A DNA stretch of 64,000 bases, from assembly GCA_902476355.1 (NCBI GenBank), contig CABSCS010000007.1, positions 3,503-67,502 of the forward strand, in the 5' to 3' direction. Below, in pieces: positions 3,397-49,543 of this stretch (its first letter is position 1; each line of letters begins with the position of its first letter). Below the pieces are notes generated by a model. It was given only the letters and a program-made list of their open reading frames with translations, did not search any database and was not told the origin of the DNA. Both the position numbers and the translations under genes were made by a program. Source of the DNA: an uncultured Eubacteriales bacterium. Lineage in GTDB: Bacteria > Bacillota > Clostridia > Christensenellales > UBA1242.

Positions 3397-4227
3397 ATGA
3401 AGAAGAAAGTTGTTTGGGGCGAAAAGCGTTATTATACCGATTGGAAAGATAATAGTTTCATGAAAACTATTGTTCTTCGCGAAAAGAAAATCAAGAATAA
3501 CTATCGATATGTTCCATGCTGGTTTGTTCGCTTTTTTCAAGGACTTTTCTATTATGTTTTTGCTCTTCCAATTTTAACCATAATGCTCAAAGTTAAATAT
3601 GGCGTTAAAGTATATGGAAAAAAGAACATGCGAAAAGTGAAAGGTGGGGCAATTTTAATCGGAAACCACACCCACGCAATGGACGGCTGTTTTGCATCGG
3701 TGAATGTTGCGTTTCCAAAACGAAACTATATCATTACAAAGAAAGACGCGGTCGAAGTTATTTTTGCAAAGCATTTCACAAAGGCACTTGGTGCACTTCC
3801 TTTGCCAGATGAACCAAAGGGTCTTGCAAATTTGAGCAAGGCTATTGATTTCTATTTGAAGCATGGCAAAACTGTGACAATTTTTCCAGAGGCGTGCGTT
3901 TGGCCATATTATAACAAACTTCGTCCACTTGCTCCGGCTAACTTTCACTATGCAGTGAAAAGCAATGTTCCAGTTGTTCCATTTTGCGTTACATATCGTT
4001 ATGTAAAAGGCAAAAATTATTTGAATAAAAAACCAAAAGTAAACATTACAATTTTGGAACCAATCTATCCAGATTTGTCGCTTTCTCCAACCGAGGCAAA
4101 GAACAAACTTGCACAGCAAACAGAAGAGGCAATGCGAAAAGTGATTGACAAAGAAGATAACGTTGCTTTCTTTGAATATGTTCAAAAAGATAAAAACGAT
4201 GAAACAAACAAGATAGAGGAGAACTAA
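3397..4227 (+). CDS. lysophospholipid (1-acyl-sn-glycerol-3-phosphate) acyltransferase family protein
   Basis: HX4D acyltransferase motif (GNHTHAMDG) and a downstream FPEA(C) block. RBS aaaggtgg. Confidence 0.7.
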   Translation: MKKKVVWGEKRYYTDWKDNSFMKTIVLREKKIKNNYRYVPCWFVRFFQGLFYYVFALPILTIMLKVKYGVKVYGKKNMRKVKGGAILIGNHTHAMDGCFASVNVAFPKRNYIITKKDAVEVIFAKHFTKALGALPLPDEPKGLANLSKAIDFYLKHGKTVTIFPEACVWPYYNKLRPLAPANFHYAVKSNVPVVPFCVTYRYVKGKNYLNKKPKVNITILEPIYPDLSLSPTEAKNKLAQQTEEAMRKVIDKEDNVAFFEYVQKDKNDETNKIEEN

Positions 4228-38833: not shown

Positions 38834-39514
38834 ATGAAACACGGAAAAAACTATAACGCATCAGCAGAAAAAATCGAGCACCTTAAACTTTATGATGTTA
38901 ACGATGCTCTTAATCTTGCAGTAGAATCTGCAAAAGCAAAATTTGACGAATCAATCGAAATTCACATTAAACTTGGCGTTGACCCTAGAAACGCAGATCA
39001 ACAAGTTCGTGGATCAGTTGTTCTTCCAAACGGAACTGGTAAATCAAAGAAAGTTCTTGTAATTGCAAAAGGCGACAAGGCTGACATTGCAAAAGCAGAA
39101 GGCGCAGATTTCGTTGGCGCAGAAGAAATGATTGACAAAATCATGAAAGAAAACTGGCTTGGATTTGACGCATGTATCACAACCCCAGACATGATGGGAC
39201 TTGTTGGTCGTGTTGCGAGAGTTCTTGGACCTCGTGGTCTTATGCCAAACCCAAAAAGTGGAACTGTAACTCCTGACGTTGCAAAAGCAATCAAAGATAT
39301 CAAGGCTGGTAAAGTTGAATATCGTCTTGACAAATTTGGTATCATCCACTGCATCATTGGTAAAAAGAGTTTCGGGGTTGAAAAACTTCGTGAAAACCTT
39401 GACACTTTGATGGACGCTATCATCAAAGCAAAACCACAAGCAGCAAAAGGACAATATATCAAATCTGTTTCTGTTGCAAGCACAATGGGACCTGGAATCA
39501 AAGTTAAATTCTAA
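38834..39514 (+). CDS. rplA: 50S ribosomal protein L1
   Basis: ..[34 protein letters not shown].. Confidence 0.95.
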
Positions 39515-39517
39515 TTT

Positions 39518-39549
39518 TAAAAAGCATGAAATTTTTCATGCTTTTTTTA
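39518..39549 (+). terminator. rho-independent terminator after rplA
   Basis: aaagcatgaaa-ttt-ttcatgcttt followed by T run. Confidence 0.8.
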
Positions 39550-39700
39550 TTACATAAATCACGATTTTGCCTTTCATATTTTTTCTTGTATATATCAATA
39601 TATATAACAAATCAAAATTCGTGTTAGTGAAAGAAAATATGGGATTTTTTTATTGCGCGAAAAAAATATTAAAATTTGTCAAAATATTTTCAAAAAACTC

Positions 39701-41813: not shown

Positions 41814-42641
41814 ATGGCATTAAAAAGATTTAAGCCGATAACCGCTGGTACAAGAGGAAAAACTTCTCCATCTTTCGAAGAAATTACAACCTCTACTCCT
41901 GAAAAATCTCTTCTTGCTACAAAGAAGAAATCAGGTGGAAGAAACCATGCTGGAAGAATCACAGTTCGTCACATTGGTGGCGGAAACCGTCAAAAATACA
42001 GAGTTATCGATTTTAAAAGAGATAAAGACAATGTTCCTGCAAAAGTTGCTTCAATTGAATATGATCCAAACAGATCAGCATATATTGCACTTTTGAACTA
42101 TGCAGACGGTGAAAAAAGATACATCCTTGCTCCTGTTGGCCTTAATGTTGGCGACACAGTAATGAGCGGAGCAAACGCAGAAATTAAAGTTGGAAACACA
42201 CTTGCACTTGACAACATTCCTGTTGGTTCAGTTGTTCACAACATTGAATTCCATCCAGGTCGTGGTGGTCAAATTGCAAGAAGTGCTGGAATCTCTGCAC
42301 AATACATGGCAAAAGAAGGCAGATATGCAACACTTCGTATGCCATCTGGCGAAATGAGAAAAGTTCTTGTAACTTGCCGTGCAACAATCGGACAAGTTGG
42401 AAACGTTGAACACGAAATTGTTTCTCTTGGTAAAGCCGGAAGAAAACGTCATATGGGCGTTAGACCAACAGTTCGTGGTTCTGTTATGAACCCAGTTGAC
42501 CACCCACATGGTGGTGGTGAAGGTAAATCACCAGTTGGACATGCTGGTCCTATGACTCCTTGGGGTAAACCTGCAATGGGTTATAAGACTCGTAAAAAGA
42601 AAAATAATACTGATAAGTTTATTGTTAAACGCATCAATTAG
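41814..42641 (+). CDS. rplB: 50S ribosomal protein L2
   Basis: ..GGRN..GRIT.RH.GGG.....R.IDF.R.., ..HPHGGGEG.. Confidence 0.95.
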
Positions 42642-42946: not shown

Positions 42947-43335
42947 TGGCAACAAGAATGCGTGAAAAAGCAATTGCAAGAAAAGAAAACGCAGACAAAC
43001 GCGCTAAGGCAGTTGCAAAATATATCAGAATTTCTCCTTCAAAAGTAAGAATCGTGCTCGATGTTATTCGTGGCAAAAAATATGAAGAGGCTGTTGCAAT
43101 CCTTAAAAACATGCCAAATTCAGGTGCTGAATATGTTGTAAAAGTTCTTGAAAGTGCAGGCGCTAACGCTGAAAACAATCTTGGACTTAACAAAGCAGAT
43201 CTTGTTGTTGCTGAAACCTATGTTGACGGTGGTGCAACACTTAAAAGATTTCAACCTGTAAGCAAGGGAAGAGCACACTCAATCAAGAAACGCACAAGCA
43301 ATATCACAGTTATTCTTGATGTTGCAAAGGCTTAG
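42946..43335 (+). CDS. rplV: 50S ribosomal protein L22
   Basis: ..ISPSKVRIVLDVIRGK....A..IL. Conserved operon position. Confidence 0.95.
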   Translation: MATRMREKAIARKENADKRAKAVAKYIRISPSKVRIVLDVIRGKKYEEAVAILKNMPNSGAEYVVKVLESAGANAENNLGLNKADLVVAETYVDGGATLKRFQPVSKGRAHSIKKRTSNITVILDVAKA

Positions 43336-45366: not shown

Positions 45367-45870
45367 ATGAAAACATTAAATGTAAAAACTGGTGACACCG
45401 TTGTTGTTATTGCTGGTAAAGATGCTGGAAAGCAAGGTAAAGTTCTCAAAACTTTCCCAAGCAAAAACAGAATCATCGTAAGTGGCGTTAACATGATTTC
45501 ACGCCATCAAAAAGCAAGAAAGGCTCAAGAAAAGAGTGCAATCGTTAAAAAAGAAGGCACAATTGATGTTTCAAACGTTATGATCATTTGCCCTGTTTGC
45601 GGAAAAGCAACAAGAGTTAAACATTCAGTTCAAGACGGAAAGAGCATCAGAACATGCAAATGCGGTGCTGCCCTTGACAAGAAATTTGTAAAGGACGCTA
45701 AAAAGGCAAAGAAAGCCGAAAAAACAGAAGTTAAAGCTGAAAAGGCTAAAACTGAAAAAACAGAAGAAAAAGTTGCAAAGAAAACTGCAACTAAAAAAGT
45801 CGTAGCAACTGGCGCGGTTAAAGAAACAAAAGCAACAACCGCTGCAAGAAAATCTCAAAGAGGAGTGTAA
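45367..45870 (+). CDS. rplX: 50S ribosomal protein L24, Cys4 (zinc-ribbon) form with a ~60-aa Lys/Ala/Thr-rich C-terminal tail
   Basis: KOW motif (GDTVVVIAGKDAGKQGKV). CPVCG..x..CKCG, as in Thermus-type L24. Then ..KKAKKAEKTEVKAEKAKTEKTEEKVAKKTATKK.. 167 aa versus about 100-110 for typical L24. Confidence 0.9.
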   Translation: MKTLNVKTGDTVVVIAGKDAGKQGKVLKTFPSKNRIIVSGVNMISRHQKARKAQEKSAIVKKEGTIDVSNVMIICPVCGKATRVKHSVQDGKSIRTCKCGAALDKKFVKDAKKAKKAEKTEVKAEKAKTEKTEEKVAKKTATKKVVATGAVKETKATTAARKSQRGV

Positions 45871-47999: not shown

Positions 48000-48620
48000 A
48001 TGGCAGAAGAAAACGTAACCATTGTTGAAGCAGTTGAAGCAGTTGAAAACACTGAAGCACCTGCACAAAAAACAAATGAGAGAAAATTTAATAGAAACCA
48101 AAAGGGTCCTAAAACAAGACGCGATAACAAACCAGAAAAAGTTAGCGATGGCATCGACAAAAAGATGGTAAACGTTAACAGAATTTCTAAAACTGTTAAA
48201 GGTGGACGTAAAATGCGTTTCAACGCTGTTGTTGTTGCTGGTGACAGAAACGGCAGAGTTGGTGTTGGAATGGGAAAAGCCACCGAAGTTACTCTTGCAA
48301 TTGAAAAAGCAAGCGTAGATGCTAAACGTCATATGGTTAAAATTGACATTAGCGGAACAACCATTCCACATGAAGTTGTTGGTGAGTTCGAAACTACAAA
48401 AGTTTTGCTCATGCCAGCAAGAGAAGGTAATGGTGTTATTGCCGGAGGTAAAGTTCGTGACGTTGTTGAACTTGCCGGCATTAAAGATATCACAACAAAA
48501 CTCTATGGTTCAAACAACCCAGTAAACTGCGTTAAAGCAACATTTGATGGACTTATGAAACTCAGAAGTGCTGAAAAAATTGCTGCTCTTCGTGGAAAAA
48601 CTATAGAGGAAATTAAATAG
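48000..48620 (+). CDS. rpsE: 30S ribosomal protein S5 (with a ~40-aa N-terminal extension)
   Basis: ..V.VNR..K.VKGGR...F.A.VV.GD.NG.VG.G.GKA.EV..AI.KA. Confidence 0.95.
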   Translation: MAEENVTIVEAVEAVENTEAPAQKTNERKFNRNQKGPKTRRDNKPEKVSDGIDKKMVNVNRISKTVKGGRKMRFNAVVVAGDRNGRVGVGMGKATEVTLAIEKASVDAKRHMVKIDISGTTIPHEVVGEFETTKVLLMPAREGNGVIAGGKVRDVVELAGIKDITTKLYGSNNPVNCVKATFDGLMKLRSAEKIAALRGKTIEEIK

Positions 48621-48915
48621 GAGGACAAATTCAAGGGCAGAAACAAAAACAACAAAGAAAACTGAAACTGCTGCAAAAGCAGAACCAAAGAAAGTTGCTC
48701 CTAAAACAAGCACAGCAAAAACAGCAAAAACAGCAAAAACAACTGCTCCAAAGGCTGCTGCAAAAACTGAAAAAACTACAACTGCAAAAAAGACTGCAAC
48801 TAAAAAAGCTCCTGTAAAAACAGCAGAAGTTAAAGTTGAAGAAAAAGTTGAAGTTAAAGTTGCCGAAGCAAAAGAACCTGCTAAAAAAGCGCCTGCTAAA
48901 AAAGCAAACGTTCCA
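48607..48915 (+). other. stop-free, start-less Lys/Ala/Thr/Pro-rich coding-like tract in the rpmD frame
   Basis: 103 in-frame sense codons run between the TAG at 48604 and the rpmD ATG. None is ATG, GTG, TTG, CTG, ATT, ATC or ATA. A strong AGGAGG (48619-24) sits at its 5' end, and rpmD's own ATG has no SD. Confidence 0.6.
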
Positions 48916-49098
48916 ATGCTCAAAATCAAACTTGTAAAAAGTGCAAGTGGAAGACTTGAAAAACAACAAAGAACTCTTGTTGCTCTTGGTCTTCATAAAA
49001 TTGGTAGCGAATCAGTTAAACCAGATAACGCTCAAACAAGAGGAATGATTTTCGTTGTAAAACATCTCGTTACTGTTGAAAGCGTAAAGGAGAACTAA
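48916..49098 (+). CDS. rpmD: 50S ribosomal protein L30 (minimal form from the first ATG)
   Basis: [13 protein letters not shown]...Q..TL.ALGL.K......V.D....RGMI..V.HLV.V. Confidence 0.85.
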
Positions 49099-49099
49099 T

Positions 49100-49543
49100 A
49101 TGAAATTACACGAAATGTCTCCTGCTCCTAACTCTGTAAAGTCAACAAAAAGACTTGGAAGAGGAATTGGCTCAGGTACTGGTAAAACCAGTGGTAAAGG
49201 TCACAAAGGACAAAACGCAAGAAGCGGTGGTGGAGTTAGACCTGGATTTGAAGGTGGACAAATGCCTCTTATCCGTCAACTTCCAAAACGCGGATTCACA
49301 AACAATTTCAGAAAGGTTTACACAACAATCAATGTTGGAGACCTTGAAAGATTTGAACCTAACACTGTTGTAACTGCTGAAATGCTCAAAGCAAAAGGTG
49401 TAATTGCTAAAATCGAACCTTATGGACTTAAAGTTCTTGGCAATGGCACACTTACAAAAGCATTGACAGTTAAAGCAGAAAAATTTACCCCAAGTGCTGT
49501 TGAAAAAATCAACAAGGCTGGCGGTACAGTTGAGGTGAAATAA
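49100..49543 (+). CDS. rplO: 50S ribosomal protein L15
   Basis: MKLHEL-type N-terminus, then ..GRG.GSG.GKTSG.GHKGQ.ARSG.. Confidence 0.95.

Follow-up and report, generated by a model that had tools for sequence, protein, structure and literature searches.

The 295-nt stretch that separates rpsE from rpmD in the window (by which we mean the whole 64,000-nt stretch of DNA analysed here) is, judged by its counterparts in related genomes, the 5′ part of rpmD, where it encodes an N-terminal extension of ribosomal protein uL30 whose start codon has been changed from ATG to AGG. We consider it probable that this represents a recent and real loss of the start codon in one strain, in which full-length L30 would be reliant on very weak initiation. 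The extended L30 is a further case of known basic tails, and the missing start amounts to an everyday point mutation or to an error; the current understanding of translation is left unaltered by these findings.

The S5-L30 spacer in the window and in related genomes

The preliminary description of this DNA had reported a gap of 295 nt between the genes of S5 and L30, and this gap is indeed present, as the S5 TAG ends at 48620 and the canonical L30 ATG stands at 48916 (Table 1). The 103 stop-free codons that had been counted in the L30 frame are also there, running from 48607 to 48915 directly after an in-frame TAG at 48604-48606, and none of them is ATG, GTG, TTG, CTG, ATT, ATC or ATA, in agreement with the absence of start-like codons that had been claimed. 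Likewise, the Shine-Dalgarno (SD) sequence AGGAGG was found where it had been placed, at 48619-48624, and no SD-like word lies ahead of the ATG at 48916. Stops abound in the remaining two forward frames of the spacer, and no promoter or terminator of note was found on the plus strand. Two minus-strand ORFs, at 48510-48929 and 48631-48996 (139 and 121 aa, respectively; rich in Phe, Cys, Ala and Val), were rejected as genes, as they mirror the AAA/GCA/ACA codon repeats of the plus strand.

The product of the L30 frame (frame 1) falls within the Pfam family of uL30 (PF00327), with an E-value of 9.7e-19 and 67.4 bits against a cut-off of 23 for residues 105-155 of the frame-1 translation. In a Pfam scan of the full protein, Ribosomal_L30 was the sole match and nothing was found on the extension. 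This is also the single uL30 match in the window's own genome, and its position is rpsE-rpmD-rplO in the spc operon.

Table 1. Features of the S5-L30 region and of the related L24 tail (positions in the window)
Feature	Position	Strand	Remarks
rpsE (ribosomal protein S5, 206 aa)	48000..48620	+	TAG stop at 48618-48620; Pfam Ribosomal_S5 E 5e-24, S5_C E 3e-29
Shine-Dalgarno sequence AGGAGG of the extended rpmD	48619..48624	+	overlaps the S5 stop; spaced 9 nt from the start position
rpmD start-codon position	48634..48636	+	AGG in the window through T>G at 48635; all other strains have ATG
Part of rpmD coding for the 93-aa Lys/Ala/Thr-rich extension at the uL30 N-terminus	48637..48915	+
Canonical uL30 core (60 aa) and stop	48916..49098	+	first codon is internal Met94; no SD
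rplO (L15)	49100..49543	+	1-nt gap after the rpmD stop
Lys/Ala/Glu/Thr-rich C-terminal tail of L24, spc operon	45688..45870	+	composition resembles the L30 tract; one 16-nt copy at 45784-45799
9-nt tandem repeat ACAGCAAAA, 3.3 copies (TAK repeats)	48712..48741	+	9-nt in-frame length difference between strains (151 or 154 aa)
15-nt tandem repeat (EPAKK/APAKK)	48870..48905	+	in strain L021, 15 nt are deleted here in frame

When the frame-1 translation was used for a protein search, 344 clusters of L30 proteins were returned. The N-termini of these relatives, which are 84-169 aa long and have a MAETK... start, read MAETKTTKKTETA..., and the closest L30 proteins begin MAETKTTKKTETAAKAEPKK..., colinear with the window translation directly past the AGG codon. 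When 40 related genomes were searched in six frames, L30 was present in 33 of the 33 high-quality genomes, and Lys/Ala/Thr-rich in-frame extensions of 55-154 aa were observed ahead of the L30 core (19 loci inspected). On inspection locus by locus, the extension was seen at every locus from the same genus, as well as in several further genera of the family, and every extension has an ATG and an SD of its own, with 11, 12, 13 or 14 nt (27 nt once) from the S5 stop to this ATG. No such extension is found at six loci that belong to other families of the order (L012-L017), where the L30 core follows the S5 stop at the usual distance of 13-31 nt. All sequences in an alignment of 40 homologues start with MAE, and conservation extends to a MAE(T/V)K N-terminus, an AEVK(V/A)E motif and a KKAxGP junction, while the middle part is variable. 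As the internal Met at the start of the core is not conserved in several genera, the extension must belong to the protein there.

These comparisons change the meaning of the spacer in several respects. The tract had been labelled an insert, which it cannot be called any longer, as it is orthologous across the genus and encodes the N-terminal extension of uL30; a foreign insert was discarded for the same reason, and because the composition of the tract is continuous with that of the operon. By contrast, the statement that frame 1 is or was translated gains support from all the genus relatives recovered, which encode the extension. It had also been suggested that orthologous spacers be aligned, and once this was done an ATG was seen in the relatives, with a frame-preserving length variation that amounts to codon-like evolution. 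For the species, what is found is thus the plain case that the preliminary description had set against its own reading, that is, an N-terminally extended L30 with an ordinary start. The gene in the window has the colinear tract, the (M)AETK N-terminus and the AEVKVE...KKAxGP junction of the clade-specific extended uL30. Where the clade has an ATG 11-14 nt past the S5 stop and behind an SD, the window has the SD and the codon AGG. On these grounds, we regard the gene as a member of the extended-uL30 family by descent, in the form of an allele without a start. In the genus and in part of the family (small-genome gut Clostridia), uL30 would be made as a protein of 115-217 aa, consisting of the conserved N-terminus MAE(T/V)K, a variable Lys/Ala/Thr tail, the AEVKVE...KKAxGP junction and the ordinary 60-aa fold, and translation of rpmD would normally start at an ATG located 13 nt past the S5 stop and 9 nt past AGGAGG.

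Recoding at the S5 stop had been offered as one way to reach a frame without a start codon. In such a model, a +1 frameshift or read-through of the stop at AAA-TAG-G would yield a fusion of S5 with the tract and L30. This would suit the lack of a start codon in the window sequence and the frame of the tract, which is shifted by +1 with respect to S5 and becomes open 14 nt ahead of the S5 stop. However, the relatives have a separate ATG and SD, and their distances from the S5 stop to the start (11, 12, 13, 14 and 27 nt) comprise all three frame relations, so that no fixed relation to the S5 frame exists. Read-through would additionally be interrupted, as the S5 frame reaches a TGA 15 codons past the TAG. 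In prfB-type shifting the SD lies 3 nt upstream of the slippery codon, whereas here it is found on or after the stop, and none of the features looked for in prfB-like recoding (no independent downstream start, a conserved frame relation and an open read-through frame) was found. As a single substitution explains everything, recoding is hardly credible.

The Lys/Ala/Thr-rich tail and its known counterparts

Among the 93 aa of the extension there are 26 K, 22 A and 18 T, with a net charge of +16. The tail is encoded by tandem repeats with periods of 9, 12, 15 and 18 nt, and within the species L30 has 139, 149, 151 or 154 aa through in-frame indels of 9, 15 and 45 nt at tandem repeats; in the sister species, the lengths are 151, 177 and 182 aa. 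Variation in tail length from strain to strain is a consequence of repeat slippage. When AlphaFold2 was run on the alignment, the L30 core was modelled with confidence (pLDDT 89-94), and residues 1-93 were left without secondary structure (pLDDT 40-54); the N-terminal tail is thus predicted to be intrinsically disordered.

The preliminary description had also compared the tract with the tail of L24. The 16-nt identity between them (45784-45799 and 48793-48808) is real, but beyond a common composition and codon preference it says little. Specifically, 3.7% of the trials in which codons were shuffled within both Lys/Ala/Thr tracts gave a common word of 16 nt or more (P = 0.037), and the identity was consequently not accepted as a sign that the L24 tail and the L30 tract share an origin. 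In fact, low-complexity segments of 43-87 aa, rich in Lys, Ala, Thr and Glu, are found in nine open frames of the window's genome (G000; contigs C1, C2, C3, C7, C8 and C10). L24 and L30 are among these frames, as is a 154-aa protein of contig C3, and several of the segments are C-terminal tails of larger proteins. Low-complexity segments of this kind are, then, a genome-wide habit and no peculiarity of L30.

A separate observation concerns the tRNA genes of this genome. ARAGORN detected 31 tRNA genes in G000, with none for Gln, His or Tyr, nor for Lys(UUU), despite AAA being the commonest codon of the tract. As the completeness of the genome is estimated at 99.68%, clusters of tRNA genes are probably missing from the assembly.

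Lys-rich tails of ribosomal proteins occur in mycoplasmas, mycobacteria and CPR bacteria. Extensions of ribosomal proteins have been reviewed (PMC11764897), and a histone-H1-like, Lys/Ala-rich tail is known as the C-terminal extension of mosquito RPS6 (PMC548281). The L30 tail resembles H1-like tails in being a basic, low-complexity and fast-evolving appendage that is found on several proteins of one genome, here including L24. In contrast to the H1-like tails compared, it is located at the N-terminus of L30 and carries the start codon, and, for this reason, one start-codon mutation disconnects the whole protein.

A parallel in architecture is found in Borrelia burgdorferi, whose uL30 was seen by cryo-EM to be N-terminally extended, with the canonical fold C-terminal (PMC10618245). 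In Borrelia, the extension (about 40 residues, 2-40) folds into a bent alpha-helix that occupies the bL37 pocket (H39-H42, H89 and 5S rRNA); extended uL30s have been noted in other bacteria as well, and a shorter form might be expressed from within the gene (PMC10618245). Both proteins share an N-terminal enlargement and a C-terminal L30 fold, and it is by this architecture, not by sequence, that we set them side by side. Unlike that of Borrelia, the tail described here is a Lys/Ala/Thr low-complexity segment of 55-154 aa that has a repeat-based coding sequence, differs in length and is predicted to be unstructured; for instance, no helix of the Borrelia type was predicted in residues 1-93, where pLDDT is 40-54. 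A search of the literature found no description of a Lys/Ala/Thr-rich form of uL30.

The start codon among strains: allele or sequencing error

At the place where the window has TCA AGG GCA GAA..., the sequence of near-identical contigs is ...AGGAGGACAAATTCA ATG GCA GAA..., so that the two differ by one substitution (T>G at 48635) and no gap. A T is present at 48635 in 12 other contigs of the same species, which come from various human-gut studies and are 99.2-99.6% identical to the window, as well as in four contigs of the sister species with about 94% identity, and the SD AGGAGG is identical in all these contigs. In strain L034, the 154-aa protein is identical and starts with ATG. A G at 48635 was found only in the window and in L029/L037 and L038, which correspond to two ENA records that are 99.985-100% identical to the window. 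One of them, ERZ28621688 ("NIEL14-1_SAMEA2042559", scaffold_6, 242 kb), has 3 mismatches in 20,444 nt, and the other, ERZ916409 ("ERR321429.PRJEB4336", k127_19403), is identical over 1,813 nt. In a public record of the AGG allele, a 60-aa L30 is annotated. This exact product is reported by a gene caller only when the upstream start is missing, and a look-up for it found three contigs in the whole collection, while the neighbouring L15 protein is indexed in 212 blocks, which indicates that the allele is confined to one lineage.

With regard to the mechanisms that had been proposed for the missing start, a sequencing indel is ruled out by the alignment, which has a substitution without a gap. 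Among the four mechanisms offered, a recently decayed N-terminal extension comes closest, with the qualification that the start codon alone has been hit, from ATG to AGG, by one substitution. No compensating change was found near the internal AUG, as the single further difference within the tract, at 48891 (GCG or GCT), is a polymorphism common to other strains. Since no other part of the gene is damaged, and its sequence otherwise matches that of sister strains, the change of the start codon must be very recent.

The question of whether the G is real deserves separate consideration. The true codon could be ATG, in which case the G would be a read-level artefact inherited by the assemblies and rpmD would be normally expressed. 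A T in every other strain and in the sister species is in line with an error of this kind, as is the lack of damage elsewhere in the gene. Additionally, T>G/A>C changes are a common class of Illumina error, and the T>G at 48635 is one of two transversions among 15 private changes. Consensus errors do occur in these data, as the long assemblies differ at 3 sites in 20 kb, and L029 (ERZ28621688 scaffold_6) has, in comparison with the window and nine other strains, a private, error-like AA>CC in rplV, at its positions 3918-3919 (window 43017-43018). Nevertheless, the G is present in three separately built assemblies (the window genome, ERZ28621688 scaffold_6 and ERZ916409 k127_19403), which makes a glitch of the assembler unlikely, and the agreement of three assembly pipelines requires a majority of G in the reads. 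Against this, the record names indicate that the three assemblies may share one sample or study of the MetaHIT era and, thus, that they are possibly not independent. The local sequence also speaks against an artefact, since the GGC motif that has been tied to systematic sequencing error does not precede 48635 on either strand and the window assembly is otherwise clean in the region. Moreover, the private substitutions of the lineage with respect to nine other strains (15 in 16 kb, of which 13 are transitions) have an otherwise natural, transition-dominated spectrum, which supports a real allele. Taking all this together, we infer that AGG is quite likely a real allele, and assign to a base-calling or consensus error a minor, albeit appreciable, chance. 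The position may also be polymorphic within the sample.

The same comparison of strains provided some observations unrelated to the start codon. At 42470 (rplB, synonymous), a third codon position, the A of the window is private; the other strains have C or T there. Homology to most other strains (L027, L028, L030-L034 and L036; region compared, window 39100-39637) breaks at window position 39637, just upstream of the S10 leader; before S10, those strains have a gene for a DUF285/LRR surface protein, while rplA (L1) is found in the window, L029 and L035. Consequently, the order of rplKA followed by S10 is a strain-level difference and no trait of the species. Another DUF285/LRR gene, located downstream of rplQ (962 aa, 56264-59152; region 55800-59550), is hypervariable among strains that are 99.2-99.6% identical, with called products of 840, 960, 962 and about 1221-1224 aa and a nucleotide identity that falls to 92-97% or vanishes.

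Possible consequences for the synthesis of L30

If the start-codon loss is real, full-length L30 would arise only through very inefficient initiation at AGG. This initiation would be aided by the strong SD, by the unstructured RNA around the rpmD initiation site (MFE -0.3 kcal/mol) and by ribosomes terminating on S5 13 nt upstream. In this regard, the gene resembles the E. coli reporters in which all 64 codons were assayed (bioRxiv 10.1101/063800), as it combines a strong SD and optimal spacing with a codon other than AUG, GUG or UUG, and low-level initiation would be expected; it differs from those engineered constructs in that AGG is here the product of a mutation in a natural ribosomal-protein gene. 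As such codons initiate at approximately 0.01-3% of AUG in the reporters (bioRxiv 10.1101/063800), AGG would give a trickle of full-length L30 at most. A tail-less L30 of 60 aa could also come from weak, SD-independent initiation at the internal AUG at 48916, which has no SD and is adjoined by modest local structure.

Non-canonical initiation had been proposed to account for the missing start, and it might be argued that AGG works as a start codon that gives enough fMet-initiated, full-length L30 for normal ribosomes. The SD, the spacing, the absence of structure and the S5 stop 13 nt upstream are all ideal for this purpose; many non-canonical codons initiate detectably in E. coli (bioRxiv 10.1101/063800), and the strain is abundant enough to produce contigs of 80-240 kb. 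However, the efficiencies observed in the reporters are far below the need for a stoichiometric ribosomal protein, and the relatives use ATG exclusively at this position. The tRNA genes point in the same direction, as an odd initiator tRNA was searched for with ARAGORN and the result was a single, normal initiator tRNA(CAU), together with a tRNA-Arg(CCU) that is an ordinary elongator; nothing points to reassigned initiation. We therefore consider a fully working AGG start very unlikely, and non-canonical initiation fails as a full explanation, although a weak residual activity of AGG may exist. Some chance, still small, is given to a broader scenario in which the allele is real and ribosomes contain L30, made either from the AGG start or as a tail-less core from the internal AUG.

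As an independent observation on start codons in this genome, the infC frame (L039 1489-2088, minus strand; C5 of G000) has no ATG, GTG or TTG near the conserved N-terminus of IF3 (..TIKQEHQLNGDI..), which is consistent with a start of the AUU/AUA type, as is typical of autoregulated infC. Relaxed proofreading of start codons by an altered IF3 was also considered, but an exact look-up of the infC product in the collection, with both spellings of the first residue, gave no match with which strains could be compared, and the idea was dropped.

Under the preferred reading, that is, a recent and real start-codon loss, the strain would carry a natural knock-out, or a strong hypomorphic allele, that affects L30 as a whole or at the very least its tail. 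Such a state could be tolerable because L30 is among the dispensable ribosomal proteins; deletions of rpmD are viable in E. coli and B. subtilis. CPR bacteria are described as often lacking uL30 (PMC9297842). As in the CPR/Patescibacteria covered there, whose L30-free ribosomes work, a knock-out would plausibly be viable here. The difference is that the gene is gone in those organisms (PMC9297842), while here the ORF is intact and 33/33 high-quality relatives keep L30. Such retention indicates selection on the gene, so that a fixed knock-out would be somewhat surprising. In any case, a severe L30 hypomorph is plausible in a strain that is abundant enough to assemble well. As 465 nt would be left untranslated, rplO, secY and adk might also be affected in a polar manner; for rplO, a separate SD is present (GGAG, 49089-49092).

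From the point of view of annotation, gene callers would respond to this allele with a 60-aa L30 and a 295-nt "intergenic" gap. One substitution in a low-complexity extension is thus enough for them to give a normal-looking L30 and an unexplained spacer, and such gene calls, as in the ENA record, hide both the extension and the lesion. If AGG does initiate, it would be a natural bacterial AGG start on a ribosomal-protein gene, made possible by a perfect SD and by termination-reinitiation coupling to S5. If the allele is true, a conserved ribosomal protein would be knocked out, or made a severe hypomorph, through its start codon in a strain living in the wild, which would bear on the natural dispensability of L30 and of its tail; if only the core of L30 is made, the strain would show, as an experiment of nature, that life in the gut is possible without the conserved Lys/Ala/Thr tail. 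For the family of small-genome gut Clostridia, a uL30 tail of 55-154 aa, predicted to be disordered, is a characteristic of part of its members.
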